DNA from: Aulosira sp. ZfuVER01 | GTDB taxonomy: Bacteria; Cyanobacteriota; Cyanobacteriia; Cyanobacteriales; Nostocaceae | Length of the DNA: 64,000 bases | Direction: 5' to 3' | Assembly (NCBI GenBank): GCA_034530615.2 | Contig: JAVRCV020000032.1 | Location: 1-64,000 of the forward strand | Shown here: positions 33,245-53,101 of the stretch, piece after piece | Layout of the letters: every line of letters starts with the position of its first letter | Position numbering within the stretch: position 1 is the first letter of the stretch | Made by a program: the position numbers and the translations under genes | The notes under the pieces: generated by a model | Told to the model about the DNA's origin: nothing | The model's input: only the letters and a program-made list of their open reading frames with translations | Databases searched by the model: none

Positions 33245-34474
33245 ATGAAACAGATTCAATGGCTGGTGGTTTGGAGCCTTAGTCTTTGGACATTATCATC
33301 AACTAAGTTACAAGCTGCTCAAGTATATGAAAGCGGCAAATTGTTTACAGAATTAACAACACCAGTGATTTCTAGAGACAATTTAGAAAACTTCAACCTT
33401 GAAACTATAAAAATCAATAACAATAACTCAAAAGTCCTACCCTCTCGATTCGAGCAAAGTCCTTTTTTAATTGCTGCACCTGAAAATTTTAATCCTGGTC
33501 TGCAAGTACCGCCACCATTACCAAAACTGCCGCCAAATCCTAGCCCACCATCAACTTCTGCTGAAACAATTGAGCCATTCGCAGTTTTAGACAGCATCCA
33601 AACTGACTTTCGTAATGATACAGATAACTTCGGTCAACATAATTTGTTCATCGAACCAACATTTCAGTTTCGGTTGCCTAATGGCAATAAACTACTTTTC
33701 ACAACAGGCTTTGACTTTTTTAAGCAACGGGGTGTGGAATCAATTACTAATATTCCTTTTCAAATTGGTTGGCAAGGAAAACTTGGAGAAGTAACTCTGC
33801 AAACAGCCGCAGGAGTTGATATGTTCAACCGTTTACCTATAGCGATAAATTTCAATGCTAAAGTTGAAGTCCCTATTGTAGCGCCGAGAGTTTCTGATTC
33901 GGGAAAATTACTTTCGGCTGTAATCATATCAGCAAACTTAGACCACAGTCCTTATAAATTTAATGCCCGAACTTTAGATAATCAAATTACGGCTTGGCGC
34001 TTTGGGCCTGATTTATATTGGCAGATTGATCGAAATACTAGCTTGTTTTCTTCATTGCGCTTGGGTAACTACAACGACGGTAATTCAGAAATTCAATCTT
34101 TTAGCAGACTAGAACGCAAGTTTGGACAATTTTCTGTGGCGGCTAACTTGTTCACCTGGAGTTACGATCGCAATGTAGAACGCACCAGTGGCTATTTTTC
34201 TCCACCAGATTTTTTAGTATACAACGCTGAGGTGGCTTGGGAGGGAGATATTGCCAATTTCTTGCGCTGTCGATTAGCTGCAAATTTAGGACAGCAGCGA
34301 CTTAACGGTGAATTTGATAATGCTAATGCTTATCAAACTCGCTGTACAGCCAAGCTTTCACCGGAAATAGAGGCAGATTTAGGCTATAGCTTTAGTAATG
34401 TGCGGAATCAAGACACGGGGGGGAGTGCTTACGGTGGTAACTCTTTAACAGGACAATTGCGGGTCAAATTTTAA
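33245..34474 (+). CDS. Outer-membrane beta-barrel, putative polysaccharide export pore
   Basis: Signal peptide, Pro-rich linker, amphipathic beta-strands, GYFSP motif, C-terminal Phe (GQLRVKF). Confidence 0.72.
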   Translation: MKQIQWLVVWSLSLWTLSSTKLQAAQVYESGKLFTELTTPVISRDNLENFNLETIKINNNNSKVLPSRFEQSPFLIAAPENFNPGLQVPPPLPKLPPNPSPPSTSAETIEPFAVLDSIQTDFRNDTDNFGQHNLFIEPTFQFRLPNGNKLLFTTGFDFFKQRGVESITNIPFQIGWQGKLGEVTLQTAAGVDMFNRLPIAINFNAKVEVPIVAPRVSDSGKLLSAVIISANLDHSPYKFNARTLDNQITAWRFGPDLYWQIDRNTSLFSSLRLGNYNDGNSEIQSFSRLERKFGQFSVAANLFTWSYDRNVERTSGYFSPPDFLVYNAEVAWEGDIANFLRCRLAANLGQQRLNGEFDNANAYQTRCTAKLSPEIEADLGYSFSNVRNQDTGGSAYGGNSLTGQLRVKF

Positions 34475-34513
34475 GCAGTAGGGCGACGCAGATAAAGCTA
34501 ACTGGCGGGGATC

Positions 34514-34590
34514 GTCATTTGTCATTTGTCCTTTGTCATTTGTCATTTGTCCTTTGTCATTTGTCATTTGTCCTTTGTCATTTGTCATTT
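34514..34590. repeat. STRR: 11 x 7 bp with 21-bp higher-order period
   Basis: (GTCATTT GTCATTT GTCCTTT)x3 + GTCATTT x2. Confidence 0.95.
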
Positions 34591-34768
34591 GTAATTAAAA
34601 ATCTAGCCGATCTGAGAGTAAGCGAATGCATTTATAAAATAAATCTAAAATTTAAAATCCAAAAGCCGAAATTGACTCACTGTGTGTTATTTGCATTTGC
34701 AAGCTGGGAAAAATGAGATGTTAAGGCTTCCAAAGTAACAGTGACTTCAAAAAAAGGCTTTTTACAAC

Positions 34769-36226
34769 ATGAGTTCTGATTTTCAACCGCCACCAAAAGG
34801 CTTATCCATACTTGCTTCTGTAGGAGGGGTAGTTACTGCAATAATTGCGATCGCTCTTTTAAATTTTTGGTCTGGTCGTCTTTCGCAAAATACACAAACA
34901 TCTGCAATATCAACATCTCAAACTGTTACTCCTACTCCTACTCCTACGGCAAACTTGGAACAACAAGCGCAAAAGGTGGCAAAACTTGATGCTGACTCTA
35001 TAGTTTTACAAGGAACAGTCATTACTCCTAGCGAACTAATCGACAAAACGCCATTTATTACGGCTGGAGACCAAAAACTGGATGCAGTTGACATGGCTGC
35101 TGCGCGTCTAGCTTGGTCATATTTTCAACGCAACTGGAACGATCAAACAGGCTTAGTTAACTCTGCTGATGGCTTTGCGGCTGTGACTATGTGGGATCAA
35201 GCAGCTGCGATCGCCGCTTTAGTTAGTGCGAGAGAACTCGATATCATCCCCGCCGCAGAATTTGAGGCGAAGATGACTAAGATGTTGCAGACTCTAGCAT
35301 CACTGCCTTTATATAAAGGTGAATTGCCTAACAAAGTCTACAATGCCAAAACTCTTATACCTGTTAATTACGGACAATTAGAGAAAAAGGAAGAAGTTGG
35401 TTGGTCAGCCATTGATTTGGGACGGATGGCAATATGGCTGAAGATTGTCGAAGCCAAGTATCCCAAAATGCGATCGCCTGTACAAGCTGTGTGGAAGCAT
35501 TGGCAAGTCAAGCGCCTCACCAAAAACGGGCAAATGTACGGTACTGCCGTTGTTAAAGATAAAGAACAGTATAACCAAGAAGGTCGCTTGGGCTACGAGA
35601 ATTATGCTGCCTACGGTTTGAAACTGTGGGGTTTAGATGTCAAGCAAGCCTTAGATCATAAATCTAATACCGCCTTTGTTAATCTTTACGGACAGGGAGT
35701 TCCCTACGATCGCCGCGACGCTAAAAACTCAGGTGCAAATAACTACGTTCTCAGCGAACCTTATATACTCGATGGCATAGAAACAGGATTTAAAGCCTTG
35801 CCTAAAGCTTATGCTGACAGAATTTTAGCTGCTCAAGAAGCGCGTTATCAAGCAACAAACGAATTAACTGCCCTCACAGAAGATAACTTAGATCGTCCGC
35901 CGTATTTTGTGTACAACAGCTTGTTTGTTAACGGCAAACCTTGGGCAACAATTACCGATACCCAAGAACAGCATAACAATTTACGATTCCTCAGTGCTAA
36001 AGCTGCGATCGGCTGGAATGTACTTTACAACACTGCTTACACCCATTCCCTAGCTGATACAGTCTTCAACAAACTGAAATCTGATAAAGGTTGGTACAAC
36101 GGATTGTACGAATCTCTGCGTCAGCCAAATAAATCTCTCACCGCTAACAATAATGGTGTAATTCTGGAAAGCTTTCTTTATAAACAAGTTGGTAAACCTC
36201 TTACCGTCTGGGCGGGAGTAAATTGA
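34769..36226 (+). CDS. DUF3131-like protein (putative glycoside hydrolase), N-terminal membrane anchor
   Basis: AWSYF..N...TGLV, TMWD, ELPNKVYN, WSAIDLGR, QEGRLGYENY, TEDNLD, TANNNGVILE. Confidence 0.82.
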   Translation: MSSDFQPPPKGLSILASVGGVVTAIIAIALLNFWSGRLSQNTQTSAISTSQTVTPTPTPTANLEQQAQKVAKLDADSIVLQGTVITPSELIDKTPFITAGDQKLDAVDMAAARLAWSYFQRNWNDQTGLVNSADGFAAVTMWDQAAAIAALVSARELDIIPAAEFEAKMTKMLQTLASLPLYKGELPNKVYNAKTLIPVNYGQLEKKEEVGWSAIDLGRMAIWLKIVEAKYPKMRSPVQAVWKHWQVKRLTKNGQMYGTAVVKDKEQYNQEGRLGYENYAAYGLKLWGLDVKQALDHKSNTAFVNLYGQGVPYDRRDAKNSGANNYVLSEPYILDGIETGFKALPKAYADRILAAQEARYQATNELTALTEDNLDRPPYFVYNSLFVNGKPWATITDTQEQHNNLRFLSAKAAIGWNVLYNTAYTHSLADTVFNKLKSDKGWYNGLYESLRQPNKSLTANNNGVILESFLYKQVGKPLTVWAGVN

Positions 36227-36247
36227 GGCGGCTGTTGCATTTTTTGC

Positions 36248-36300
36248 GATATTGAACCACAGATAAACACCGATATTTATCTGTGTTCATCTGTGGTTTT
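36248..36300. repeat. Palindromic dispersed repeat; inverted copy at 42602-42657
   Basis: GATATTGAACCACAGATAAACACCGAT (36248-36274) is the reverse complement of 42631-42657. Confidence 0.85.
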
Positions 36301-36319
36301 TTATTCTTGATCCCAACAA

Positions 36320-36688
36320 TCACTCAGTAGGTATTACTGTTTGCTTGACTGCTGGGCGTGCTTTCTTGCGATTTGACTTGCGCGTTCCCCCAGCCATCCC
36401 ATACTCATCACTATTTTTGCCATACTGAGATGCAACATTCAGCAGCATCTGTTCGGAATAACTATTTAACTCACGTTCGGCTTCTAGTAATGCATTCTGT
36501 GTTTTATCCACTATCGTTCGTGCTTGATTGTAAGTCGCTAGCTTCTCTCGGATATCCAGAATTTTGCTATTGTAACCAGCGATTGAGTATCCATTGCCAA
36601 AGTCTAACTGAGAATTAATCATCTGCATTCCTTCAATCCGTCGTTCAGCTTTGGTGAGTGCGGGGGAGTTGCGTTTGCGTTGCGCCAT
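36320..36688 (-). CDS. Small basic coiled-coil hypothetical protein
   Basis: 122 aa; basic ends (MAQRKR; RKSNRKKAR), LDFGNG, heptad helix, YGKNSDEYGMAGG. Confidence 0.85.
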   Translation of the reverse strand: MAQRKRNSPALTKAERRIEGMQMINSQLDFGNGYSIAGYNSKILDIREKLATYNQARTIVDKTQNALLEAERELNSYSEQMLLNVASQYGKNSDEYGMAGGTRKSNRKKARPAVKQTVIPTE

Positions 36689-36900
36689 AAAGTTTTCCTT
36701 TTGGGATTTGAAGATAAAGAACCTAAAAAACCATACTTAGTTCTTTGTATACAACTACAATACGCACTAAGCAGATGCAGTAGCCTGAGTGAAGCTACAG
36801 AATCTTTGAAAGCATAAAGAATAGCAAATTGGATAAATGCGGGTATTTTTGCGGAAATAAGTCTACAAAAACAGGTTTATGAGTTGTGAAGCTAAAATAC

Positions 36901-37041
36901 GAATCAAAAACTTAATTTGCGAATCAGAAACTTAATTTGCGAATCAAAAACTTAATTTGCGAATCAAAAACTTAATTTGCGAATCGCAAAACTTGATTTG
37001 CGAATCAGAAACTTAATTTGCGAATCAGAAACTTGATTTGC
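36901..37041. repeat. Tandem array of 7 units, 20 bp (one unit 21 bp)
   Basis: GAATCA(A/G)AAACTT(A/G)ATTTGC at 36901, 36921, 36941, 36961, 36981 (21 bp), 37002 and 37022. Confidence 0.95.
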
Positions 37042-37096
37042 GAAGCGATCGCTATCATTGTTGTTATTCCACAGCAAATATCTTAAGCTTTGGCTC

Positions 37097-37447
37097 TCAC
37101 AAAGGTAAATACAACACAACTCCATTCCATTCTGCTTGTTCACTAAAATCGATCAGTAGTAACAACTCGTCAATTGCCTGTCGAATTGGCATCCGATCGT
37201 TGACCACAAACATCCCTGCCATCGCTTCTCCTCCAACCAAACGCTCATAAGCAAAATCTGGCATCATTGCACGATCGTGAGTCAGAAGGATACGCTGATT
37301 AATTGCTGCCCAAGCTAAAATTGCTGGATCGTCTACTTCTCGCAAACCAACATCTTGAACTCGAAGTAGATCGAGATTAGGTTGACGCAAAAACAGTCCT
37401 CGAACAATGTCACCGTTGAAGTTCTCATCGCTTAACAAACTCAGCAT
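37097..37447 (-). CDS. DUF5615 PIN-like toxin
   Basis: LLSDEN, DDPAILAWA, ILLTHD. Confidence 0.85.
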   Translation of the reverse strand: MLSLLSDENFNGDIVRGLFLRQPNLDLLRVQDVGLREVDDPAILAWAAINQRILLTHDRAMMPDFAYERLVGGEAMAGMFVVNDRMPIRQAIDELLLLIDFSEQAEWNGVVLYLPL

Positions 37448-37455
37448 AATCGGTG

Positions 37456-37785
37456 CTACTGATTCTGCTGAGATAGTAAACGAGTACGAATTAGGCTGAG
37501 ATCGGGTTGAATACTAGACAAACGTTGCTGCACTGATTCAGCTAACTGCTCTCTCTGATTTAAGTATGCTTGTACAGCATCTTGGTGTCGAAGATAGTAA
37601 CCAATTGTGTTGTAGACATCAGACAAAGATAGAGTTGAGTATCGATGAACAATAGACTCAGGGGATGCACCATCATGAAACGCTCGGATCACAGTCTCCA
37701 GCAAAACCCTTGAATTCCCAACTCGAATTGCTCCGGTTTCATCTTCCCATAGAGGCGGTGTCTCACGTTCCAAAACAAGGCTCAT
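37456..37785 (-). CDS. DUF433 antitoxin
   Basis: IRVGNSRVLLETVI, GASPESI...Y.TLSLSDVY..IGYY; directly upstream of the DUF5615 gene. Confidence 0.85.
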   Translation of the reverse strand: MSLVLERETPPLWEDETGAIRVGNSRVLLETVIRAFHDGASPESIVHRYSTLSLSDVYNTIGYYLRHQDAVQAYLNQREQLAESVQQRLSSIQPDLSLIRTRLLSQQNQ

Positions 37786-37917
37786 GAATTAACTTTCCTA
37801 GATCCAGTACAAAACGATCGTAACTTAATGCAGAGCGCAATTGCTTTGTTGAGTGGCTGAAAGAGCCTTGCATAATAAAGTATGAATTGAGCGATCGCGC
37901 ATTCCTGCATTACAATT

Positions 37918-38124
37918 TTACTCCCCACGTCCTGGTTTGCAATCTGCAAAACCTAATGCCTCAGTATCAAGAAAACTGGCGATCGCCATCTCAATTACTG
38001 CTTCGATGGGATATTCAATTTCAGTAGCACGAGCAACCAAAGCTTCTCGAATTCTTTCAGGCAAACGTTCCAAGATAACTTCGGCATCAGAGGGAGAAAG
38101 TTGCTCTTGAAATTTAGCTTGCAT
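37918..38124 (-). CDS. Small hypothetical protein (possibly ribbon-helix-helix-like)
   Basis: 68 aa with purine-rich RBS; LPERIREAL...YPIEAVIEMAIASFL. Confidence 0.7.
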   Translation of the reverse strand: MQAKFQEQLSPSDAEVILERLPERIREALVARATEIEYPIEAVIEMAIASFLDTEALGFADCKPGRGE

Positions 38125-38262
38125 AACTTTACCTTCCCCTAAATTTTCTCACAGCCTAACATCATGGCTTGTTGTCAGTTGTTTTAATAACCTTTTTAGC
38201 CTATGCCTAAGCGATCGCCCATGACTGCTATCGCTAGCTGTATCCTAATTTCGCTAAACTTT

Positions 38263-38349
38263 TGGTAACGTTCCCCATCAGCGGCGACAGAATATAACTG
38301 AAACGAAGTGAGAATACTCTGTAAGTCCACTGCATTAGGGTTGTTATGC
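38263..38349 (-). mobile_element. attC-like recombination site
   Basis: Minus strand GCATAAC-AACCCTA-ATGCAGTGGAC...GTCGCCGCTGAT-GGGGAAC-GTTACCA; 87 bp, starts 32 bp after the vapC stop. Confidence 0.6.
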
Positions 38350-38381
38350 CGCAATTAACACGACTTATTTCTATTGACGCT

Positions 38382-38810
38382 TCAAACCGTCCAATCTTCA
38401 GTCACTAACCCCTCCACTTTACTAAAATCTCGAAGATTACGGGTTAACAAAATCAATCCACGGGATAGCGTAATGGCTGCGATCCTAGCATCCATCTTTG
38501 CAAGTTGAATCCGTTGCGACTGTAATTGACTCAATGCCGTAGCTGCACCTGCATCAAACGAAACGAGGGGTAACACCTTGAAGTCGCGGACGAGTCGCGT
38601 CATCATTTCATACCCCTTCACGATGTCATTTAAGTAACGAGCGCGATTGATATAAGTGTGGCTGCCAAGCATCTGCTCGTGAAATGTTACTGTCGATACA
38701 GCAAAATCTGATAGTGGATAGTGAGCCATGCGTGTTGAAAGGTTAGTGTAATCCTGTCCTGCTTGTCGCTGAAGAATGCTCAGATGATCCGTATCTAATA
38801 AATACTTCAT
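38382..38810 (-). CDS. vapC: VapC-family PIN toxin
   Basis: YLLDTD, TFHEQ, MDARIAA, LLTRNLRDF. Confidence 0.9.
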   Translation of the reverse strand: MKYLLDTDHLSILQRQAGQDYTNLSTRMAHYPLSDFAVSTVTFHEQMLGSHTYINRARYLNDIVKGYEMMTRLVRDFKVLPLVSFDAGAATALSQLQSQRIQLAKMDARIAAITLSRGLILLTRNLRDFSKVEGLVTEDWTV

Positions 38811-39022
38811 GGCTCGTCTTGCGCTTCGAGAATAGATTCATCGCCTTGACGAATCGCTCGACCATAAGCAAGTACCTCTTCAAAAGCAGGTTCATCCTTA
38901 AAAGACCCTGTAATTTGTTGCAGCCAATTGGTTGCTTGAGGAGTCGCAACTTGCTTCTGCAATTCAGCAATCGCTGCTTCGACTGCTGCTAGCCGTTCCT
39001 CTAAAGAAGTGTTAGTTGCCAT
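38807..39022 (-). CDS. Cognate antitoxin
   Basis: 71 aa, acidic; ATGA overlap with vapC; WLQQITGSFKDEPAFEEV. Confidence 0.82.
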   Translation of the reverse strand: MATNTSLEERLAAVEAAIAELQKQVATPQATNWLQQITGSFKDEPAFEEVLAYGRAIRQGDESILEAQDEP

Positions 39023-39211
39023 TTGATTTTCCTCATCATCACTTAATTAGTTGTTTTTGTCTGAAGAATAGCGCGTCTGGTTTTGTAATTTCTGCAACGT
39101 CATCGGCCTTTCTCCAAAGCTCTCTAGGCTCATTGTAAATTGCTGCTGAGGCTTTATCCTCTAGATTTTCTGCTAGCCTGTTGGTGCTATAACGCTCACC
39201 TATTATCACCT

Positions 39212-39580
39212 TCAAAGCGTTGCCTTATCATCGAAAGACAAAATGATCTGTCCGTCTTGCAGTGAAGCTCGAATCGTAATCTGTTCGTCATCACGTATCT
39301 CTATGTGGAGCGTATTCGACTCCATCCGGTCTGGCTTACTTACATTATGCTCTCGCAAGACTACGCTGTAATTTCCTGCTTTGAGACGGGTGTAAACGCT
39401 ATTCGGTGGTGCTAAATGGGCAAATCTTGCTCCTGTTCCATAAACATTGCGATTGATGTAAAGCTTGTAAGCACATATACCACCGACCAAAGAAGTATCG
39501 CCCTGCACAATCAATGTGGAGCGGTTTGCTGCGTCCCACTCTTTGTTAAATTTCTCCCAGAAACCGAAAATGGATCTCAT
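39212..39580 (-). CDS. Hypothetical beta-rich protein
   Basis: 122-aa ORF with ATG start; no recognised family. Confidence 0.6.
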   Translation of the reverse strand: MRSIFGFWEKFNKEWDAANRSTLIVQGDTSLVGGICAYKLYINRNVYGTGARFAHLAPPNSVYTRLKAGNYSVVLREHNVSKPDRMESNTLHIEIRDDEQITIRASLQDGQIILSFDDKATL

Positions 39581-39660
39581 GCGTGCAATGTCATCAAAGC
39601 TCGATTTACGGATATAACTGTACAGACGGGCTACGACCCTCCTAACTCCTTCTGTGCATT

Positions 39661-42429
39661 ATGATATACAAGCACCATCAACAAAAGCTGTTGAGATGGA
39701 TTGCATTGTTCCTAGTTGGGACAGTGCTGCAATTGTTCTTTTACATCCCGACACCAGTCTTATCCCAAAATTCTAGTAGTTGTAGCAATATTACTGCCCC
39801 GCTCACGCCCGAAGAACAAACTTATGCTCGTGCGGCTTGGCAATATTTTGTCAAAAATTATCAGCCAGCGACAGGATTTACTAATTCTACTGGGGGTTAT
39901 CCTTCGGGTACGCTTTGGGATATGGGGAATTACTTGATGGCGTTGAATGCGGCGCGATCGCTAAATCTCACAGATCAAGCAGACTTTGATGGGCGTCTCA
40001 ACAAGTTTTTGACGACTCTCAGCAGCCTAAAGCTGTTTGAAGATGCCTTACCTAATAAAGTCTACAACGCAGCCACCGGACAAATGGTTGATTATGGTAA
40101 CAATCCCAACGAACGGGGGATTGGCTGGTCTGCTTTAGATGTAGGTCGGATACTAGCGGCGTTTGATGTGATTCGTACTTGTCACCCGCAATATAATGAT
40201 TGGCTCAAAGGAATTGTAGCCAAGTGGCAAGTAGGGCGATCGCTCAAAGATGAACAACTTTACGGTGCTATGGTTCTCCCAGATAAAAAAACATTACTAG
40301 TACAAGAAGGACGACTCGGCTACGAAGAATACGGCGCTAGAGGTTATCAACTTTGGGGTTTTTCTGCACCAAAAGCTCTTGCCTTGCAACCATATAAGAT
40401 GGTTGAAGTTAACGGTGTGCAAATTCCTGTTGATACTCGCGATTTCCAAAGCACCAACGCAAATAATTATGTTGTTAGTGAATCTTATATTCTTGATGGT
40501 ATTGAATTTGGCTTGCAAGGTGAGTTAGCAGATTTTGCAGCTAGAGTTTTAGATGTGCAGAAGCGGAGGTACGATGCTACAGGTCAGTTGACTGCGGTAA
40601 CAGAAGACAACATCGACCAACCACCTTATTTTCTTTACAATACTGTTTACTCTAACGGTAATGCCTGGGCGACAATTACAGACGAAAACAAACCTTACCC
40701 CCAGTTTCGCAGTCTTAGTACAAAAGCAGCTTTTGGCTGGCGTTATCTTTTTCCAGATAATGCTTATGCGCAAAAGATTTTTGATGCAGTTAAGGATCTT
40801 CGCAGTCCTAATAATGATGGTTACTACGCTGGCATTTATGAAGAATCGAAGCAGCCGAATAAAGCTTTAACTGGCAATACCAACGGGTTAATTTTAGAAA
40901 TTCTGTACTACAAAGCTAGAGGAAATCGGCCTTTAATTGCCTCTGCTGCTACCAGTACACCAACTAAACCGCCTAGCAATCATACTTCTGCAACTCCACC
41001 AAATTCTAGTGTTCCGGCTCCACCTCCTGCGGATACTTCTAAGGTTGATGAGGTGGCTGTCGCACCCATTCCACCAGTTGGTAATCCAGAGTCATCGTCT
41101 AACTTAAAACTAACTCGACCTTTAACAGTAGTTGAACGTCGCTATGCAGAAGCCGCATGGAGATATTTTCAAGCAAATTATCATTCTAAAAGTGGGCTGA
41201 TAGACGATCGCAGTGATTTTAAAGGTGCAACTCTTTGGGGATTAGGAGATTATTTAGCAGCATTACACGCAGCGCGATCGCTTGATATTATTTCTGCGAA
41301 AGAATTTGACCAGCGCACCCGCCATTTGTTAGCAGCTTTAGGTAAACTGCCGTTATTTGCAGGGGAGTTACCAAATCGAGGATACGATACGCGATCGCTC
41401 CAAGCAATAGATTATGGCGGAAATCCTGTTCCCGACGGTAACGGCTGGTCAGCTTTAGATTTAGGTAGGATGCTGGCAGCACTTTACAACTTAAAAAGCC
41501 ATCATCCAGAATACGCCGCAGCCGTCGATCGAGTTGTCTTAGATTGGTCATACCTGCGGGTAGTGCGGGATGGTATTTTATCCAGTACTACAACCGCCAA
41601 AGATCAAGAAGGACGTACCCTTACCCGCGTCAACCCGGAAACCCGCTTAGGGTATGAAGAATATGCCGCGCGTGCTTTTCAATTATGGGGTTTTGATGTT
41701 GAGGGTTCGGCTGTTGGCGGTGAATATAAAACTGCTTTGGTGGAGGGAGTGAAAGTACCAATCCAGCGTCAGCGAACTGATACGAATTCCCAAGTTAATC
41801 AATATACAGTCAGCAATCCTTTCTTACTTTATGCGTTGGAATTTGGCTTAGATCCAAAAATGCGATCGCTCTTTGAGCCAATTTTTCAAGCACAAGCCGA
41901 ACGTTACCGTCATACCGGAACCCTGACAGCCTCAGCTACTACCCTAATAGACCGCAAGCCTTACACTGTTCACAGCGCAATTACTGCCAAAGATGAACCT
42001 TGGATCGCTGTAGGAGATGATGGGCAAACTGTACCGAAAGCGCGAATGGTGAGTACAGCAGTAGCTTTTGCTTATCATGCCTTACTTCCAGAACATCAAT
42101 ATAGTCAGAAGTTATTCCCAGCAACGACTGATTTATATAACCCACTGACAGGTTATTATGAAGGCTTTTATGAAACCACAGGTAAAACAGCAGTTGGTTT
42201 CACAGGCAGCACCAACAGCATGATATTGCAATCGTTGCTATATACAGTCATGAATCGCCAACCTTTAATTCGTCCTACTGCAATGAAATCTCCCTGGTGG
42301 GAGGCTGTAGCGCAAGGAAATTCTGGTCGCGGTTTACCCAGAATTCCCCAGTCAACAGCTAAGTTAATTTCTGATAGTAATGGCAGTTACTGGGTTTCTA
42401 GTAGCGAAAATCGGAGAGTTGCAAAATAG
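39661..42429 (+). CDS. Secreted protein with two DUF3131-like domains
   Basis: Signal peptide; two repeats of AW.YF..NY, LW, LPN..Y, WSALD.GR, RLGYEEY joined by a Pro/Ser/Thr linker. Confidence 0.85.
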   Translation: MIYKHHQQKLLRWIALFLVGTVLQLFFYIPTPVLSQNSSSCSNITAPLTPEEQTYARAAWQYFVKNYQPATGFTNSTGGYPSGTLWDMGNYLMALNAARSLNLTDQADFDGRLNKFLTTLSSLKLFEDALPNKVYNAATGQMVDYGNNPNERGIGWSALDVGRILAAFDVIRTCHPQYNDWLKGIVAKWQVGRSLKDEQLYGAMVLPDKKTLLVQEGRLGYEEYGARGYQLWGFSAPKALALQPYKMVEVNGVQIPVDTRDFQSTNANNYVVSESYILDGIEFGLQGELADFAARVLDVQKRRYDATGQLTAVTEDNIDQPPYFLYNTVYSNGNAWATITDENKPYPQFRSLSTKAAFGWRYLFPDNAYAQKIFDAVKDLRSPNNDGYYAGIYEESKQPNKALTGNTNGLILEILYYKARGNRPLIASAATSTPTKPPSNHTSATPPNSSVPAPPPADTSKVDEVAVAPIPPVGNPESSSNLKLTRPLTVVERRYAEAAWRYFQANYHSKSGLIDDRSDFKGATLWGLGDYLAALHAARSLDIISAKEFDQRTRHLLAALGKLPLFAGELPNRGYDTRSLQAIDYGGNPVPDGNGWSALDLGRMLAALYNLKSHHPEYAAAVDRVVLDWSYLRVVRDGILSSTTTAKDQEGRTLTRVNPETRLGYEEYAARAFQLWGFDVEGSAVGGEYKTALVEGVKVPIQRQRTDTNSQVNQYTVSNPFLLYALEFGLDPKMRSLFEPIFQAQAERYRHTGTLTASATTLIDRKPYTVHSAITAKDEPWIAVGDDGQTVPKARMVSTAVAFAYHALLPEHQYSQKLFPATTDLYNPLTGYYEGFYETTGKTAVGFTGSTNSMILQSLLYTVMNRQPLIRPTAMKSPWWEAVAQGNSGRGLPRIPQSTAKLISDSNGSYWVSSSENRRVAK

Positions 42430-42674: not shown

Positions 42675-43322
42675 CTACTTTGCTAAACGCTGCTTCCGTT
42701 TCAACAGCATACCGCCGCCCAGTGCCACACCTATACCTAAGATGGTAGAGGGTTCGGGAACTTGGGCAACTTGAAAATCTAATTGATATTTTTCGATACC
42801 TTTGGTAGTTTCCTGAATCCAGAAAGTATACGTTCCTTCTGTCAGCACACCGCTAGGGAAGCCGACAAAAGAAAATCCCCGGATCGGATCTGCTTTACCC
42901 AAATCGTCTAAGACATTATCGCCAACACGTTTTCCTGGTTCTGCACCAATCGTAGCTGCACCAAGTAATGGAGGATTGTTATCGGTAACAGTGGTATTTT
43001 CAATCAGTGAACCTGCTTGTACTCCGAAAAATCCTTGATTGATCTGATCGTCATCTCGTCCCTGATAGTCAGCCAAAAGAATTTGGTTGAGTAGATAACC
43101 AGAGGGAATATTGATGGAAAAGAAATCTCGGTCAAGATTTGGGTTACCTGTTGTCGAGCCAATGATGAGGTTGGAACCAGTAGATAGGTTAAGTTTTGTT
43201 GGATTTAAGTTATCGCTAGAGAAGTCACCCTGAGAAGCTTCATTAAATGCAATGTTTGCTGCGTAGGCGTTCGGAGCAAATGCCAACATAGCCACTAACC
43301 CTAACACTAAGCTTTTCATCAA
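42675..43322 (-). CDS. PEP-CTERM sorting-domain surface protein
   Basis: Signal peptide (AYA), C-terminal VPEPST + TM + KRKQR. Confidence 0.92.
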   Translation of the reverse strand: MMKSLVLGLVAMLAFAPNAYAANIAFNEASQGDFSSDNLNPTKLNLSTGSNLIIGSTTGNPNLDRDFFSINIPSGYLLNQILLADYQGRDDDQINQGFFGVQAGSLIENTTVTDNNPPLLGAATIGAEPGKRVGDNVLDDLGKADPIRGFSFVGFPSGVLTEGTYTFWIQETTKGIEKYQLDFQVAQVPEPSTILGIGVALGGGMLLKRKQRLAK

Positions 43323-43658: not shown

Positions 43659-45629
43659 ATGGCTTCTATATTTATTGATAATTCCCCAAATTTTTCGGGC
43701 AACAGCCGTTCAATTTTAAAAAAAAGAACACTATTATTTCGCTACTTAGCAGAAATAAATTTAATTTTTGGGATCTGGTATTTACAATGGCGCATCACTC
43801 ATTCAATCAATTTTGATGCGCTGTGGCTCTCGATACCCTTGCTATTAGCAGAAATCTATAGCTATTTTGGTGGTGTAATGTTTGTTATCGGGTTGTGGCG
43901 GCCTTTAGTTAGGCAGATTAAGTCACTCGATCTGATGACTCCACCTTTGCCAAAATCCGACTGGCCTAGTGTAGATGTATTTATCACTTGTTACAACGAA
44001 CCGCCGGAAATAGTAGAACAAACTGCTCAGGCGGCTCTAGCAATAGATTACCCTGCCAACAAATTGCGCGTTTATGTGCTAGATGATGGTAATTCTGCGG
44101 CTATGAGAGCCATGACAGAGAAGTTGTGTATTGCAGATTTGCAAACACCACTACTACAGCAAGAAGTTCATCGAATAGATGCAGAACGCTCTTTATTAGT
44201 AGAACGCCTGCAACAATTAGAAAATCTGACATCTAATACTCAAGCGGCCGAACAGTGGTTGCAAGAAAGTTTGGAAGAAAATACTGTCGGCTCGTTTGTC
44301 CAAAGTCTGCGAGAGTTGATTCTTTGGCTACCTCCCACTCATCAAAGTATAAGCGATCGCCTCAAAACTGAAAGGCAAGCTTTAGAAGCAGCTATTCATC
44401 AAAAAGAATTGGAATTAGTTGAACTGGCTCGATTCCGTTACATTGCTCGTCCCAAACCTGCTGGCGTACCCCACCACGCTAAAGCAGGCAATCTCAATTA
44501 TGCAATGTTCTCTGGCGAAACTTCTGGAGAATTTATTTTAACTTTAGACGCAGACCATATACCCAAACCACAATTTCTCAAACGAGTTTTGCCATATTTC
44601 TACAACTACAATCTGTTCACAGGTAAATATGAGCAAAATCGTATTGCTTTTGTCCAGACACCCCAAGATTTTTATAATATTCCTGCGGGCGATCCTTTTG
44701 GACATCGAGCAAGTTTATTTTATGGGCCGCTGCAACAAGGCAAAGATGGCATGAATGCCGCTTTTTATACAGGAACAAATGCGATTCTTCGCCGAGAAGC
44801 ATTAATTAATGTTGGATTACAATATTTTGCTGATGATTTTGCCAAAGATGAAAAACGCTTAGATGAATTTCAGTTAGTAGGTGGCGTATCCAGCAACAGT
44901 ATTACAGAAGATATGAATACAGCCATGCGTCTACATGGTGCTGGTTGGAAATCTATTTATCACAACGAACTTTTGGCAGAAGGTTTAGCACCGGATGACC
45001 TCAGTTCTACTTTGAAACAACGATTACGTTGGGCGCAAGGAACTATCCAAGTACTACTGCGAGAAAATCCCCTCACAAAATCAGGGCTAACATTTTGGCA
45101 ACGTCTGCAATATTTTAAGACGATGTATAGTTATTTTTCTGGTTTTGCTACTCTAATTTTTATTGCTTGCCCAATTATTTACTTTTTTACAGAAATTGTT
45201 CCAGTTAAAACCTATGGCTCTGATTTTGCTCTACACTTTTTCCCAGCATTTATTATTAATCGCCTGACATTTTTAGCAGCTACTTGGGGAATTCCTGCTA
45301 GTGAAGTTTGGCGCTCTGAACAATATGCGATCGCATTATTTCCTTTGTTAATCCAAGCTGTTTGGAGTGTATTTACAGGACAAAAAATAAACTTTCAAGT
45401 TACACCCAAACAAAGGCAAGCGGGAATTTATTTGCGGCTAGTTTGGCCGCAACTAGTTATATTTAGCTTGACAATATTAGGAATACTTTGGAGCGTTTAC
45501 CGCTTTGCCATTGGTCATCTTCACAATCCTTGGGTTCACTTACTCAATAGTGCTTGGGCTGTTTATAATTTACTGCTTTTGTGGGCTATTATTCGTGCAT
45601 CTGTTTGGCAGCCTGCAAAGGAGTCATAA
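43659..45629 (+). CDS. Cellulose-synthase-like processive GT2 (no PilZ, coiled-coil insertion)
   Basis: YNEP, DDG, HAKAGNLN, DADH, QTPQ, TED, QRLRW, FQVTPK; TM helices at both ends. Confidence 0.92.
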   Translation: MASIFIDNSPNFSGNSRSILKKRTLLFRYLAEINLIFGIWYLQWRITHSINFDALWLSIPLLLAEIYSYFGGVMFVIGLWRPLVRQIKSLDLMTPPLPKSDWPSVDVFITCYNEPPEIVEQTAQAALAIDYPANKLRVYVLDDGNSAAMRAMTEKLCIADLQTPLLQQEVHRIDAERSLLVERLQQLENLTSNTQAAEQWLQESLEENTVGSFVQSLRELILWLPPTHQSISDRLKTERQALEAAIHQKELELVELARFRYIARPKPAGVPHHAKAGNLNYAMFSGETSGEFILTLDADHIPKPQFLKRVLPYFYNYNLFTGKYEQNRIAFVQTPQDFYNIPAGDPFGHRASLFYGPLQQGKDGMNAAFYTGTNAILRREALINVGLQYFADDFAKDEKRLDEFQLVGGVSSNSITEDMNTAMRLHGAGWKSIYHNELLAEGLAPDDLSSTLKQRLRWAQGTIQVLLRENPLTKSGLTFWQRLQYFKTMYSYFSGFATLIFIACPIIYFFTEIVPVKTYGSDFALHFFPAFIINRLTFLAATWGIPASEVWRSEQYAIALFPLLIQAVWSVFTGQKINFQVTPKQRQAGIYLRLVWPQLVIFSLTILGILWSVYRFAIGHLHNPWVHLLNSAWAVYNLLLLWAIIRASVWQPAKES

Positions 45630-45769: not shown

Positions 45770-46099
45770 ATGCCTGCAAACATGAGAACAATTGAATTGA
45801 CTGGAATATTAGATGGAATTAAAGGTAATGAATTACGTCGTGAAATTAACGATAGTTTAGCTGACGGGATTGATATTTTATTAATAGATATGAAAGCAGT
45901 TAGCTTTGTCAATAGTTCAGGTTTAGGTTCTTTAGTATCAGCAATGCAAGTAGTACGTAATGCTAATGCTAAACTTTTCCTCTGTTCTATTAATGACCAA
46001 GTTAGGATGTTATTTGAGCTTACAAAACTGGACAGAATTTTTCAAACATTTGTCGATAAAGATGACTTCAATCGTCAGTTTTTAGCTGCAACAGAGTAA
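45770..46099 (+). CDS. STAS anti-anti-sigma factor (RsbV/SpoIIAA-like)
   Basis: LIDMKAVSFVNSSGLGSL with phospho-acceptor Ser; LFELTKLD. Confidence 0.92.
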   Translation: MPANMRTIELTGILDGIKGNELRREINDSLADGIDILLIDMKAVSFVNSSGLGSLVSAMQVVRNANAKLFLCSINDQVRMLFELTKLDRIFQTFVDKDDFNRQFLAATE

Positions 46100-46105: not shown

Positions 46106-47296
46106 TTAATTAAAGAATATTTTTAACAACGAAAAATCATCTTCCAGATTTTGTTGGTGATTTAATGCCATAATCTGTTCTAAAACAAGATTTAGATAAC
46201 AGTTATTGACATTGCTATATTTGATTAGTAAATCAATAAAAGCATCAACTCCCCAAATCTTTCCATCTGGCTGACTTATTTCATAAACTCCATCACTAAA
46301 GATGTAGAGAGTGCTGTCTTGTTCAATATCAAATACAGCATCCTCAAAATCAACATCAGGTAAAAAGCCTATTGGTAAATCTAGAGAACTGAGTTTTCTA
46401 ACTTGAAAGCTGGTTGCAGATGTACCAGATAAAAGTAAAGCTGGAGGATGTCCGGCGTTAGCGTAAACAAGTTGGCGTTTGACGCGGTGATAAACTCCAT
46501 ACCAAATTGTGAAGTATTTATCACCGTGATTTTTCATTTGAAAAGCATGATTAAGTGCTTTGAGAACTTCGCTAGGTTGGTAAAAGTTAGTGTTGGATAG
46601 GGATTGCGATCGCAAAATATTTAATACAGATACAGATAGCAAAGCAGAACCTACCCCATGTCCTGATACATCTAACAAATAAATTGCTAAATGCTCGTTA
46701 TCCAACCAGTAATAGTCGAAGCAATCACCGCCTAACTGTGCTGAGGGAACAAACAATGCTTCTGTAGTTACTGTTCCTTGAAGGGGCGAAGGTAAAAGCG
46801 ATCGCACATAATCAGCCGCCTCAGCCAATTCTGCCTCTAAAATTTGCTTTTGGGTTTGCAAATTCTGATTGAGTATTTCTAAAGCTTGTTTTTTACTTTG
46901 TAAATCTTGATTTAGTTGATATAACCTTAACCCTGCTCTTACTCTCGCCTTTAATTCACTCATTTGGATTGGCTTAGAAACAAACTCATCTGCTCCCGCA
47001 TCTAATCCTCTTACTCTATCTTCCTCCTCACCCGGAGCCGCGCCTTTAGCAGTCAGCAGAATAAAAAAAGTAGTAGCTAACTCTGGATCTGCCTTAATTT
47101 GACGACATACTTCTAATCCATCTAACTGTGACATCACCCAATCACAGATAATTAAAGCCGGACGTAGCAATCGAGCTTGTGCAATTCCTTCCTCTCCATT
47201 ACTAGCAACAGTAGTCTCATAACCCTGTTTTTGGAGAGTTCTATTTAGTGCGGCTCTAACAATCGGATCGTCATCAATAACTAAAATTTTTACCAT
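46106..47296 (-). CDS. Receiver-PP2C phosphatase (RsbU/SpoIIE-like)
   Basis: REC (VIDDD, ICDW, KP), coiled coil, GGDCFD, DVSGHG, NAGHPP, FSDG, DDFS. Confidence 0.94.
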   Translation of the reverse strand: MVKILVIDDDPIVRAALNRTLQKQGYETTVASNGEEGIAQARLLRPALIICDWVMSQLDGLEVCRQIKADPELATTFFILLTAKGAAPGEEEDRVRGLDAGADEFVSKPIQMSELKARVRAGLRLYQLNQDLQSKKQALEILNQNLQTQKQILEAELAEAADYVRSLLPSPLQGTVTTEALFVPSAQLGGDCFDYYWLDNEHLAIYLLDVSGHGVGSALLSVSVLNILRSQSLSNTNFYQPSEVLKALNHAFQMKNHGDKYFTIWYGVYHRVKRQLVYANAGHPPALLLSGTSATSFQVRKLSSLDLPIGFLPDVDFEDAVFDIEQDSTLYIFSDGVYEISQPDGKIWGVDAFIDLLIKYSNVNNCYLNLVLEQIMALNHQQNLEDDFSLLKIFFN

Positions 47297-47447: not shown

Positions 47448-47864
47448 GTGGATAATAAAATTTCTTTAAAAATCAATACAGATATTACAGCTTTATCTTC
47501 TGTTTTATCTTGGTTTGAGCAAATAAATCAACCGCCCATAACTAAACCAGAAATTTGGTGGCAATGCCAAACCTTACTGGCAGAAGGTTTTACTAATATT
47601 GTTGAACACGCCCACAAAAATTTATCAGCACAAACCCCTATTACTATAGAAGTTTGCCGTTATGCTCAATCTATAGAAATACGTATATTTTCTCAAGGTA
47701 AACCTTTCAATTTAGAAGAAAAATTACAAGAAGTATCTGAATTTGAAGAAAACAATCGAGAACGTGGACGTGGTTTAAAAATAATGTCAAGTCTCGCTGA
47801 CAAGTTAAGTTATGAACAGATAGCAGAAAATAGCTACTGTTTATTTATAAGTAAATTATATTAA
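47448..47864 (+). CDS. Anti-sigma factor / Ser kinase (RsbW-like)
   Basis: EGFTNIVEHA, ERGRGLKIM..LAD. Confidence 0.9.
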   Translation: MDNKISLKINTDITALSSVLSWFEQINQPPITKPEIWWQCQTLLAEGFTNIVEHAHKNLSAQTPITIEVCRYAQSIEIRIFSQGKPFNLEEKLQEVSEFEENNRERGRGLKIMSSLADKLSYEQIAENSYCLFISKLY

Positions 47865-48043: not shown

Positions 48044-51000
48044 ATGACAGCACCATTACCTGATAACGAAGCACAGAGAATTGAAGCTCTTTTAGAATAC
48101 AAAGTTCTCGATACTCCATCTGAAGCAGCATTTGACGATCTCACACGTTTAGCATCATATATTTGTGGAACTCCCATTGCTTTAGTCAGTTTAGTTGAAA
48201 AAAATCGTCAGTGGTTTAAATCAAAAATTGGGCTAGATGCGCTAGAAACACCTAGAGATATAGCATTTTGCGCCCATGCAATTGTGCAATCTGATGTTTT
48301 TACTGTACCCGACGCTACAGCCGACGAAAGGTTTGCGGCAAATCCATTAGTTACCTCTGACCCTAATATTCGCTTTTATGCTGGTGTACCTTTAACTAAC
48401 CCTGAAGGCTATGCTTTAGGAACACTTTGCGTCATTGACTACGTACCGAGAAACCTCACCCCAGAACAAGTTGAAGCTTTAAAAATTCTCGGTCGCCAAG
48501 TTATTAAACAAATGGAACTACGACGTAATTTAGCAAATTTGGTACTTGTAACTAATCGACGTAAACAGGTAGAAAAGATACGTAAGCATTTTTTTAAAAG
48601 AGTTGCGGGTGGCTTTGGATTAGCATCAGTAATTTTAGTATTGATTGGCTTAGTTTCTTATCGCAGCACGACAGTTTTAATTAATAGCAATAACCAAGTT
48701 AAAACAACTCAAGAAACAATCAATAGTTTAGAAGCATTGCTATCCCATATCCAAGATGCTGAAACTGGGCAACGCGGTTACATCTTGACGGGACAAGAGC
48801 GTTATCTTAAACCTTATCAGGCTACACTTGCAGAAGTGGAGCAAGAAATTGAAAATCTGAGAAATTTAACAGCCGATAAATATCAACAACAACAAATTGA
48901 AGTACTCAAACCACTATTAGCCGCTAAACTTAACGAACTCAAGCAAACTATCGAGTTGCGTCAGCAAAAAGGATTTGATGCAGCATTGCAACTAATCCTC
49001 ACAGATCGGGGGAAAAACCTGATGGATGATATCCGCAAGGTTATCTCTGATATGGAACAGCAAGAAAGGAAGCTACTGCAACAGCGATCGCTAATTGTCA
49101 AAGCCAGTGCTAATAATACAATCTCGATCATAGCGATCGCTATCTGCTCAAGTTTTCTCACTCTGGGCGTAATTTACTATTTAATTTATCGTGAGTTCAC
49201 CCAGCGCAAGGTTGTAGAAGATACACTGCACGAAGAGCGGAACTTTATCTCAGCAGTGCTAGATACAGTCAGTGCTTTAGTTATAGTTCTCAACCCACAA
49301 GGACAAATTGTTCGCTTCAATCAAGCTTGCGAGCAAATAACTGGTTACTCCTTCGATGAAGTCAGGGATAGATATTTCTGGAATTTGTTTTTAGTTCCTG
49401 AAGAAGTAGAGCCAGTCAAAGCAATTTTTGAGAAATTAAGAGCAGGGCACATAACTCCCAACTCTCAAAACTATGAAAACTATTGGAAAACTAAAGATGG
49501 TAGCCTACGGCTGATTTCTTGGTCAAATACCATTCTTCAAGACTACGAAGGCTCTGTAGAATACCTTATTGGTACAGGTATAGACATCACCGAGAGCAAA
49601 CAAGCAGAAGTTGCATTGCGTGAAAGTAAACGTTTTGCTGAGAGTGTCACAGAAAACACCACCAGCATGATCTATGTATTAGACTTAGACACCTTAACAG
49701 GGGTTTATGCAAATAAAAACCTGGCCGAATTTGTAGGTTATAACCCAGAAGATGCTGCGAAAATAGGTGCAAACCTTTTACCGACTATTATTCATCCTGA
49801 CGATCTACAGATTAGGATGGTTTATTACCAGCAGTTCCCGAATATCCCAGACGGTGAAATAGTAGAATTTGAGCAACGAGTCAAGCACATCAATGGTGAG
49901 TGGCGTTGGCTTTGGCATCGTGAAACTGTTTTTAAACGTCGAGCAGATGGTACACCACATCAAGTTATGGGAACTGCTCAGGATATTACTGAGCGCAAAC
50001 GCGCCCAAAAACATCTCACAGCACAATATGCTATTACTCGCGTTTTAGCAGAATCTAATTCAATCTCCGAAGCCACTCCCCAAATACTCCAAGCAATTTG
50101 TGAAAGTTTGGGATGGGATGTGAGCGAAATTTGGATGGTAAACCAGCAAGCAAATGTACTTGATTTTCTTGATTTGTGGCATCGTGCATCTTTGGAAATG
50201 CAAGTGTTTAAAACACTGAGTCAAGAAATCACGTTTGCACCAGGAATCGGATTACCTGGCCATGTTTGGGCTAGTGGTGAACCTGTTTGGCTAATTGATG
50301 TCGTTAGCGATATTAACTTTTTGCGAAACCAGATTGCTCAACAAATAGGATTACATGGTGCTTTTGGTTTCCCAATTCGTAGCGAAAAGAAAATTCTTGG
50401 CGTAATTACCTGCTTCAGCCATCAGATTCAGCAATATGACCAAGATTTGGCAAAAATCATGAATTCTATTGGCGAATTAGTAGGGCAGTTTATTCAGCGC
50501 AAGCAGGCAAAAGAAGAATTGCAACGCCAAAACTTGCGATCGCAATTATTTACAGAAATCACCCTCAAAATTCGCCAATCTTTGCAAATTGAAGAAATTC
50601 TGCAAATCACTGTTACAGAAGTTCAAAAAATTCTTCAAACTGACCGAGTTTTAATTTATCAGCTGTCGCCAGATGGATGCGGAAGTATTTTGATTGAGGC
50701 AGTAGTTGCTGACTGGCCAGCAATTAAAGCACAAAATAGCGCTGACTCTTATCTGCAAACAGAATATCAGCAACAATACAGTCTACAACAGTACCGACAA
50801 AAGCAAATTGACGCGATCGCTGATTTGGATGCGATCGTTATTCAACAAAGTCATCTAGAATTCCTGCAAAAGCTTGGGGTTAAAGCCAATTTAGTCATCC
50901 CCATACTCGTCAAAGAAGAACTCTGCGGTTTGTTAATTGTCCATCAGTGTGCCTCTCCCCGCCAATGGTCAAGTTTTGAAACTCATCTTTTACGCCAAAT

Positions 51001-53101
51001 CGCCGATCAAGTAGGCATTGCGATCGCCCAAGCCCAATTATTAGAAGTAGAAACTCAACAGCGACAAGAATTAGAAGTGGCTCGTCGTCAAGCAGAGTTG
51101 GCTTCTCAAGCCAAAAGTGCTTTTTTAGCCAATATGAGTCATGAAATCCGAACTCCCATGAATGCTGTATTGGGGATGACTGGCTTGATGTTGGAAACTC
51201 CCCTCAACCAAGAACAGCGAGATTTCATGGAGACAATTCGCATTAGCGGCGATGCTCTTTTAAGCCTGATTAACGAGATTTTGGATCTATCCAAACTTGA
51301 AGCTGGGGAAATGGCTTTAGAAACTCTGAATTTTGATTTATCAACTTGTGTGGAAGAGGTGTTAGATTTATTAGCCCCCCAAGCTCATAAGAAGGGATTA
51401 GAAATTGCCGCGTTGATTTATCGCAACGTTCCGACTCACCTGCAAGGCGATGCTACCCGTCTCCGACAAATTTTGATGAACCTGATTAGTAATGCGATCA
51501 AGTTCACCAGTAATGGAGAGGTAGTAGTACGAGCCGAATTGCGATCGGAAACTACCACTACAGCTAATATCCGCTTTACCATCACCGATACTGGTCTTGG
51601 CATTACCACCAAAGACCAAAGCAAACTGTTTACCCCATTTACCCAGGTAGATGCTTCTACTACTCGCAAGTATGGTGGCACTGGTTTGGGATTGGCTATC
51701 TGTAAACAATTAGTAACTTTGATGGGAGGAGAAATTGGAGTAGAAAGTCAGTTAGGCGAAGGCTCGAAGTTTTGGTTTGAGATTCCTTTTGCCAAGCAAC
51801 AAGAGCCTGTTACTACGATAGATGACTGTGGAATACTGAGCGATCGCCGTTTGTTAGTGGTTGATGACAATGCCACTAATCGCAAAATTATTTACCATCA
51901 AGCTACCCGTTGGGGAATGCAAGTAGATAAAGCTGATAGTGCTGAGGCTGCCTTGAGCGCTATGCTAACAGCTTGCCAGCAAAACAAACCTTATGATGTT
52001 GTCTTAATTGATATGCAGATGCCCCGAATAAATGGTCTGGAATTGGGAGAACAAATTAAGGCCAATTTTGCTATTGCTAAAACACCTTTAATTATGCTTA
52101 CTTCTACTAATCAACGAGATGAAGTACATCGGGCGCTCAACATAGGATTTGCTGCTTATTTAGTCAAACCCATTAAAGCATCACGACTCCTCGATACGAT
52201 TATGAATGTTTTAGAAACTAAAGGTGAACTGGTACAAGAGGAATTGAAAGTTATAATTCAGGAGTGTGGAATGAAAAATTTAGACAAAAAAAATGAGCCT
52301 TTTGCTAGCTCGCCTAAGTTAAGAATCTTACTAGCTGAAGATAATTTAGTAAATCAAAAAGTAGCATTAAAGCAACTACAAAGTCTTGGCTATACTGCTG
52401 ATGTAGCTGCCAATGGTCAAGAAGTTCTGCAACTATTAGAAATAGTTCCTTACGATTTGATTTTAATGGATTGCCAAATGCCAGTCCTCGACGGTTTGGA
52501 AACTACAAAAGAAATTCATCGTCGGCAAGAGAGCTTCTTTGCCAACCATCGTCGTCCTATAGTAATTGCGATGACTGCTAATGCCATGAAAGAAGACAGA
52601 CAAATGTGCCTAGATGCAGGAATGGATGACTATATAAGTAAGCCTGTCATCAAAGAAAATTTGGCAATAAAATTAGAACATTGGAACCAGTTTCTCCTAG
52701 AGACACGAGAGGTAATTACGTTAGAGAATCCAGTTTCTCCGATAGAAGAAATTGATATACACAATCTACCAATTGATTGGCAACACTTACATCAAATTTC
52801 CGAAAATGATGCCGAATTTGAATTACATTTGTTGCAATTATTTGTAGAAGATGTTACATCTCGTTTGGACTTAATTAAAGTGGCGATCGCTGCTCGTGAT
52901 TTTCCGCAAATGGCGAAAGAAGCCCATCAGATTAAAGGTGCTAGCGCCAATATAGGGGCTACAACTATGTATCTAGCTGCTGACAAACTAGAACAATTAG
53001 CTCACAAGCAAGAGCGTAGAGGCACTACCGAATTAATCACAGAGATAGAAGAAGTTTTTAATCATATTCAAAGCTTTGTCATAGCAAGCCAGAAGCTGTA
53101 A
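48044..53101 (+). CDS. Hybrid histidine kinase GAF-CHASE3-PAS-PAS-GAF-GAF-HK-REC-REC-Hpt
   Basis: [23 protein letters not shown]3, [15 protein letters not shown], two REC domains, AHQIKGAS Hpt. Confidence 0.95.

Follow-up and report, generated by a model that had tools for sequence, protein, structure and literature searches.

A widespread DUF3131-containing glucan synthase cassette in Aulosira sp. ZfuVER01 that may produce a beta-1,2-containing envelope glucan

Within a 64,000-nucleotide stretch of Aulosira sp. ZfuVER01 (Nostocaceae; contig JAVRCV020000032.1, positions 1 to 64,000; the window), which is contig C32 of a complete 8.0 Mb genome, we analysed a gene cluster at 33245..53101 that combines a glycosyltransferase family 2 (GT2) synthase with three DUF3131 domains, an outer-membrane barrel and a partner-switching module. 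This cassette is a real and widespread synthase-dependent glucan system that is unstudied as such; no functional study of it was found in the literature searched, most of it non-subscription. With a probability of roughly 45%, its product is a beta-1,2-containing envelope glucan and not plain cellulose, shaped by transglycosylases resembling glycoside hydrolase (GH) family 189 and controlled by phosphorylation. All eight genes of the original prediction, which had been made from the sequence alone, were recovered at their places.

Synthase and DUF3131 genes travel together in samples of 151 genomes of the phylum and 251 of the class, which overlap and contain related, non-independent genomes. 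DUF3131 matched in 11 of the 151 genomes, two of which gave short fragments only, and the other nine are exactly the synthase carriers, with synthase identities of 74-100% in eight and 38% in a distant member of the phylum; in 25 other genomes with a GT2 match the identity was at most 40%. A DUF3131 gene lies beside the synthase in every carrier (9/9). At class level, 24 genomes hold DUF3131, 24 hold the synthase and 23 hold both. The sole synthase found without DUF3131 has an internal stop (G379), and a genome in 200 contigs (G367) contains four DUF3131 domains and no orthologous synthase that could be found. Synteny across cyanobacteria, on which the original prediction had made itself dependent, was thus borne out, as the two genes are adjacent (one contig, within 10 kb) in 21 of the 23 co-carriers and the arrangement is conserved beyond the phylum. 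A scan of genome contigs for further loci covered only close cyanobacterial ones, the best 80 of 748. OpgC acyltransferase genes occur in several cassettes, including 4/80 of these loci, and an optional PIG-L deacetylase gene was seen beside STAS in 10/80 (e.g. L001:12120-12842, L005:7580-8293, L007:13783-14334).

Counts across phyla come from plasmids and from 36 metagenome loci, several of them near-duplicates. The GT2, 2-3 DUF3131 genes, STAS, RsbW and REC-PP2C occur together on plasmids of Pantoea, Paracoccus, Vibrio and Nostoc, and those of Pantoea and Paracoccus have an acyltransferase and a hybrid kinase as well. DUF3131 was present in the fetched DNA of 20 of the 36 metagenome loci of the non-cyanobacterial synthase, and most of the others are short. 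In Klebsiella pneumoniae, accessory block 3b comprises a cellulose synthase, three DUF3131 genes, OpgC, a hybrid kinase and an anti-sigma factor with its antagonist (PMC12974863). This is the same cassette, listed there by annotation only, and its relatives show QRFKY/SED motifs and use a different pore family; it counts among the accessory loci of that species with the strongest ecological structure (PMC12974863). A Sulfitobacter plasmid carries a distant DUF3131 with a different GT2. GH2-like sugar-binding proteins recur beside non-cyanobacterial cassettes (L102:7727-9970, L124:929-3160, L128:5988-9985 and L016:17537-19702, the last assigned by Pfam and the others by eye).

The three DUF3131 domains of the locus all score far above the Pfam cut-off for PF11329, as had been expected for one anchored and one tandem protein. 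Protein A (34769..36226, plus strand; PF11329 E 1e-157) has one predicted (alpha/alpha)6 domain and an N-terminal membrane helix at residues 9-36, and protein B (39661..42429, plus strand; 1071 bits) has two domains, B1 and B2, behind a signal-like N terminus; their description as anchored and secreted is compatible with these N termini, for which hydropathy was the sole basis. An AlphaFold model of the domain built from a 133-sequence alignment reached a predicted local distance difference test score (pLDDT) of 98 and replaced a single-sequence model (pLDDT 37), which was discarded. When this model was compared with 48,161 chains, the top eight were all beta-1,2-glucan enzymes (Z 25.9-36.8), led by GH189 (8wy1; Z 36.8, root-mean-square deviation 2.7, 348 aligned residues) and including cyclic glucan synthase (Cgs, 33.8), GH144 (31.7-32.6), GH192 and GH194 (both 30.0) and GH162 (25.9), while the first chain from outside the clan scored 21.8 and a GH8 cellulase 18.9. 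The 'putative glucoamylases' among the PDB matches were taken to be GH144. Family labels of the matched chains otherwise follow PMC12102758. Foldseek agreed on the clan and ranked GH144 hydrolases first, and a DUF3131 sequence profile searched against the PDB matched GH189/Cgs only; identity to characterised clan enzymes is just 9-14%. From the model, DUF3131 is predicted to adopt the (alpha/alpha)6 barrel of the beta-1,2-glucanase clan (SGL / GH-S) and to be closest to GH189. The stand-alone domain is shorter than that of GH189 (381 vs 574 aa) and lacks an insertion of about 180 columns with a long alpha-5 helix and extra helices.

Candidate catalytic residues of protein A are D216, E277 and E371 (112, 173 and 267 in model numbering). 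In GH189 the nucleophile is E1442 in the motif WGISE and the acid/base E1356 in ASEAR (PMC10834661, PMC12102758). After removal of the GH189 insertion columns, hhalign (95% probability) placed TAVSED on WGVSES at top column confidence, so that E267 stands in register with E1442 and D112 with the aspartate of the clan motif VDSG; no significant alignment of DUF3131 with GH189 was obtained with hhalign in its global modes or from the C-terminal half by itself. Glutamate occupies the nucleophile register in 122/133 family members, all three acids are kept in 190/248 domains, and Y278 is a plausible counterpart of the clan Tyr (Y367). E173 is conserved in 95% and, as judged only by eye from its spacing and its position on the helix, fits the place of the clan acid Glu (E239 of XcSGL). 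As Glu is absent from the nucleophile position in the inverting members of the clan (sequences compared by eye), the better reading is that intact DUF3131 domains look like retaining transglycosylases and not like plain hydrolases. To see whether DUF3131 falls within one of the published groups GH192, GH193, GH194 or Group 4, its family motif EGRLGYE was looked for in four supplements of PMC12102758 and had 0 occurrences there, although line breaks could hide some.

Domains A and B1 keep every candidate catalytic acid. In B2 the candidate nucleophile is changed from E to T and neighbouring conserved residues are also gone, and the same holds for its orthologues, which form their own branch of the domain tree (support 100/100); B2 therefore looks catalytically dead. 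The tree also shows that a degenerate copy arose separately in other phyla. The proposed relation of DUF3131 to GH144/GH189-type glycanases is upheld by the predicted fold and refined to a putative GH189-like transglycosylase, with one of the three domains apparently dead. Two further observations concern degenerate copies: in Pantoea, 2/3 of the DUF3131 copies seem to have degenerated, and one of these forms a very long branch (L016:10508-11866), and the Aulosira genome holds a fourth, lone DUF3131 gene (G000:C52:177668-179038; L014:9633-10976), about 70% identical to protein A, with Lys in place of the candidate nucleophile.

Partner-switching genes were likewise confirmed. The set is complete, with a STAS protein (45770..46099, plus strand) carrying the phosphoacceptor Ser in an NSSG motif, a REC-SpoIIE (PP2C) phosphatase (46106..47296, minus strand) and an RsbW-type Ser kinase (47448..47864, plus strand), followed by a hybrid histidine kinase with the order GAF-CHASE3-PAS-PAS-GAF-GAF-HisKA-HATPase-REC-REC-Hpt (48044..53101, plus strand); the phosphatase gene converges on STAS and diverges from RsbW. 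Ser49 of STAS is invariant in 39 aligned cassette proteins. In 5/36 full-length synthase open reading frames of relatives an RsbW domain, 40-49% identical to that of the window, is fused in frame inside the cytoplasmic insert of the synthase, and the loci with a fusion hold no free RsbW, which ties the switch to the synthase. The synthase of PCC 7002 has the size of the fused forms (788 aa), and our guess is that it carries such an RsbW. Such coupling has a precedent in the HenR-All4160-Alr3423 switch of Anabaena, in which STAS phosphorylation acts directly on a polysaccharide glycosyltransferase, although there STAS is fused to the enzyme, whereas here STAS is free and the kinase sometimes fused (PMC13555669). 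The same work counts Alr3760 among five candidate Ser kinases. No sigma-factor gene was seen in the window locus or in the annotated Pantoea, Paracoccus, Nostoc and Sphingobium regions, the only regions inspected for one, and a search with a short motif gave no HetR-like site upstream of STAS. Elsewhere the genome has a second, paralogous STAS / REC-PP2C pair in convergent orientation (G000:C73:212815-214272; 42% and 56% identical).

The synthase itself (43659..45629, plus strand, 656 aa) has the full processive D,D,D,QxxRW signature (DDG142, DADH297, TED416, QRLRW454, FQVTPK579) and scored 337 bits against the CelA / BcsA equivalog TIGR03030, for which the cut-off is 699. No PilZ match was found in it, and the protein ends after its last helix; BcsB, GH8 and PilZ, whose absence had been predicted, gave no match among the locus proteins scanned. 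A cytoplasmic insert of about 105 residues lies at about 150-255; the idea that it is a decayed kinase was dropped, as no significant match was obtained. In an unrooted tree (28/46 rows kept; built without CrdS or plant CesA sequences and with OpgH left out for its too long branch), the cyanobacterial synthases of this type and the QRFKY-type ones from other phyla fall on one side of a 100/100 branch, and BcsA, BgsA-like, XcsA and other cyanobacterial synthases on the other, the BgsA label of L142 being given by the HlyD-GT2 layout on the S. meliloti symbiotic megaplasmid and not by name. Grouping the CcsA type with BcsA was rejected (approximately unbiased test, p-AU 1e-62; the group was chosen after the tree was seen), and the signal for separation comes mainly from the membrane channel (37-38% vs 19-22% identity). 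No BLAST match of the synthase to E. coli OpgH was obtained at E 1e-3. The genome has a separate canonical Bcs operon (G000:C52:262000-272300; L147) with porin-like, TPR, GH8-like and BcsB-like genes and a BcsA with PilZ, as assigned by eye and by the tree.

The outer-membrane beta-barrel with its GYFSP motif and C-terminal Phe (33245..34474, plus strand, 409 aa; translation might also start from the in-frame TTG at 33224) was also found as described. It matches Pfam BCSC_C at E 2.6e-4 with 20.8 bits, below the cut-off of 23.5, some homologues carry BcsC-related names from their sources, and its atlas neighbours are BcsC-C-terminal, porin and PgaA-barrel clusters; no sequence match was found in the PDB. 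From these similarities the protein resembles a BcsC/PgaA-like pore without a TPR arm. In the 151-genome sample all 8 cyanobacterial carriers have the barrel close to the cassette; it was not found in G300 or G367. Outside the cyanobacteria the pore slot is filled by a different, unnamed barrel family with repeated PW(N/D)PDFTY motifs (L012:10465-11433, L015:8545-9552, L016:6221-7138).

A relative of protein A has the accession BAB75454.1, which we take to be alr3755. What the original prediction missed is that the synthase belongs to a published type, the cyanobacterial 'cellulose synthase with PCR domain' (alr3757, Npun_F1469, SynPCC7002_A2118; PMC12430437, PMC4851311), with which it shares a PilZ-less GT2 and an insert between U1 and U2, and for which cellulase and cellulose-binding-domain data exist. 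The order alr3756-alr3757-alr3758(STAS)-alr3760(kinase)-alr3761(hybrid kinase) in Nostoc PCC 7120 matches the window (PMC12267927, PMC4192349, PMC13555669), the orthology being taken from architecture and order and not from direct alignment. In the literature examined, alr3756-alr3757 appears as an operon that encodes an unknown protein and a synthase (PMC12267927), the synthase is treated as a lone cellulose synthase with partners unknown, and no link to DUF3131, barrel or switch is made. A 2025 review names mechanism and partners of this cyanobacterial cellulose synthase nearest plant CesA as open (PMC12430437). The cassette supplies candidate partners, and the product is directly testable in PCC 7120 and PCC 7002. 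When cesA is mutated in PCC 7002, a layer in the periplasm disappears and growth slows, at low salinity only (PMC4851311), a phenotype that would suit a periplasmic glucan with an osmoprotective role; the text examined of that paper gave no linkage analysis for the native polymer.

The mechanism that we propose builds on the observed gene content, co-occurrence, fusions and conserved residues together with a predicted fold and catalytic register, from which we infer donor sugar, linkage, transglycosylation, export and the direction of control. GT2 would link glucose units into a chain and extrude it into the periplasm, in which the intact domains A and B1 would cut and rejoin beta-1,2-linked chains (by cyclising, resizing or grafting), like the GH189 domain of cyclic glucan synthase, and the dead B2 would bind or scaffold the chain. 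Through the barrel, some of the product may reach the surface. Control would proceed without cyclic di-GMP (c-di-GMP), from the hybrid kinase via REC-PP2C to STAS, opposed by RsbW, and would act directly on the synthase; the kinase-synthase fusions point to such non-c-di-GMP control of a processive glucan synthase. If so, and we offer this tentatively, cyanobacteria, Klebsiella, Pantoea, Vibrio, Paracoccus and Bacteroidota could share a third route to beta-1,2-glucans, with a BcsA-fold synthase, stand-alone GH189-like transglycosylases and a dead partner, an interchangeable pore and a Ser-phosphorylation switch at the synthase. DUF3131 would also add a branch not yet classified to the beta-1,2-glucanase clan, with 1,083 clusters at 50% identity (E up to 1e-10), a count that may include other clan members. 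Beyond the original prediction, this analysis adds the nucleophile register, the dead-domain lineage, a counted co-occurrence with its exceptions and the verified RsbW-synthase fusion.

Several observations weigh against a beta-1,2 product made in this way. On the enzymatic side, hhalign did not resolve the acid/base region, for which E173 was picked by eye, the clan Phe (F286 of XcSGL) is not evident in DUF3131, where the position is apparently Pro/Ser, and PgSGL4 is reported to have the clan fold yet no beta-1,2 activity. The catalytic core of the synthase is 41% identical to BcsA/BgsA/XcsA and 36% to other cassette synthases, a core-only tree supports the split with 89/81, and the cyanobacterial synthase retains QRLRW and TED; since this core does not lean towards either group and QRLRW is intact, the synthase does not reveal the linkage. 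GH26 genes occur in 9/80 cyanobacterial loci and are closest to CelH (E 2e-15), the PDB 'Endoglucanase H' presumably being a lichenase; a 'hypothetical' gene of the N. flagelliforme plasmid that had been considered as a barrel was dropped as GH26-like. GH16 accessory genes are found in Vibrio and Sphingobium, and both families point to beta-1,3/1,4 chains. In three metagenome loci with long flanks and in Sphingobium, synthase and switch genes occur with no DUF3131 nearby, the Sphingobium variant holding a BcsS pore gene and GH16 instead. The frequent detachment of protein A and the published reading of the PCC 7120 STAS orthologue, both described below, likewise count against it. Moreover, cellulase removes the CesA-dependent layer of PCC 7002 and a cellulose-binding domain labels it (PMC4851311), an indication of beta-1,4 linkages. 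The PCC 7002 data, the retained QRLRW and TED with the BcsA-like core identity, the GH26 and GH16 genes, the BcsS gene of Sphingobium and the low identity to characterised clan enzymes would fit a cellulosic beta-1,4 or mixed beta-1,3/1,4 chain that DUF3131, as a clan branch with changed linkage specificity, trims, rejoins or branches, in which case the cassette would still be one new system. We regard this as a realistic possibility, yet the characterised active clan members in the literature examined are all beta-1,2-glucan-specific, GH26 is optional whereas DUF3131 is near-obligate, and both the rejected grouping of the CcsA type with BcsA and the separate Bcs operon argue against it.

With a beta-1,2-glucan as product, DUF3131 might instead comprise plain hydrolases that size or clear the chain, as BcsZ does for cellulose. 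The Foldseek ranking of GH144 and the 97% conservation of the aspartate proposed as general base in GH144/192/194 speak for this; however, that aspartate also occurs in GH189 according to the clan paper, GH189 is the best structural match and most family members have Glu in its nucleophile register, so that we consider plain hydrolases unlikely. Finally, the synthase could make cellulose alone, with its neighbours as unrelated hitchhikers and a heterocyst sigma factor as the target of the switch. The split arrangement in the window would agree with this, as would the frequent detachment of protein A, the loosest part of the cassette (synthase in the fetched DNA of 29/80 A-centred loci and of 18/43 with full flanks), and the paralogous STAS-PP2C pair; the STAS orthologue alr3758 is transcribed from a HetR-dependent promoter of its own, is targeted by HetR in heterocysts and is read as an anti-anti-sigma factor (PMC4192349). 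Against hitchhiking stand the 23/24 co-occurrence, the same gene set across phyla, RsbW fused within the synthase and the lack of an annotated sigma-factor gene in the Pantoea, Paracoccus, Nostoc and Sphingobium regions, and we judge it very improbable. A beta-1,2-containing glucan shaped by GH189-like transglycosylases is therefore the explanation that we prefer.

In the window the two DUF3131 genes are parted by 3.4 kb of small minus-strand genes (36320..39580) lying outside the cassette: a 122-aa unknown, DUF5615, DUF433, a weak PIN match and another 122-aa unknown. These inserts are absent from the corresponding place in L001, L002 and L004, and the structural genes split here are adjacent in close relatives (e.g. 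L004). A minus-strand PEP-CTERM gene, whose place is not conserved, lies between protein B and the synthase (42675..43322). The genes had been called co-oriented, which is right for the four structural genes, non-contiguous as they are; REC-PP2C is on the minus strand and minus-strand genes split the cluster. A single operon for the whole cluster is ruled out by the opposite-strand inserts (five or more genes), and a promoter and terminator scan stayed at chance level (40 vs 37.2; 13 vs 11.9). Within the inserted part, 37097-39020 (minus strand) resembles a toxin-antitoxin DUF5615/DUF433 pair plus a PIN-like gene with small upstream open reading frames, and a 20-bp tandem repeat of about 7 copies marks its edge (36900-37044). 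Other repeats are the heptamer GTCATTT x11 between barrel and protein A (34514-34592) and a tandem repeat region giving repetitive open reading frames on both strands (63448-63768). After the cassette follow CHAT, DUF928-like and CHASE2 genes (53155-60369; labelled by eye, the last with GGDEF/EAL-like domains), families that also flank the cassette on the Nostoc flagelliforme plasmid (L019:158-6876).

Compared with known systems, the cassette works like a cross of three of them and fails membership of each. With cyclic glucan synthase it shares the GH189 relationship, as the DUF3131 model is closest to that domain and has Glu in the nucleophile register, but its domains are stand-alone, exported and present in 2-4 copies with one dead, and it has a GT2 polymerase, an outer-membrane pore and no GH94. 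OpgGH/OpgD/OpgC likewise combine a GT2 with periplasmic beta-1,2-glucan-type enzymes and optional OpgC, and the low-salinity phenotype of PCC 7002 is a further likeness; the cassette synthase, however, is BcsA-like, its periplasmic enzymes are predicted (alpha/alpha)6 barrels and not GH186, and no OpgG-family match was found in the locus. The Bcs system (BcsA-B-C-Z) also has a processive GT2, a periplasmic partner of glycanase fold and a BcsC-like pore, whereas the cassette, without PilZ, BcsB, TPR and GH8, has its synthase on a separate branch and a phosphorylation switch in place of c-di-GMP.

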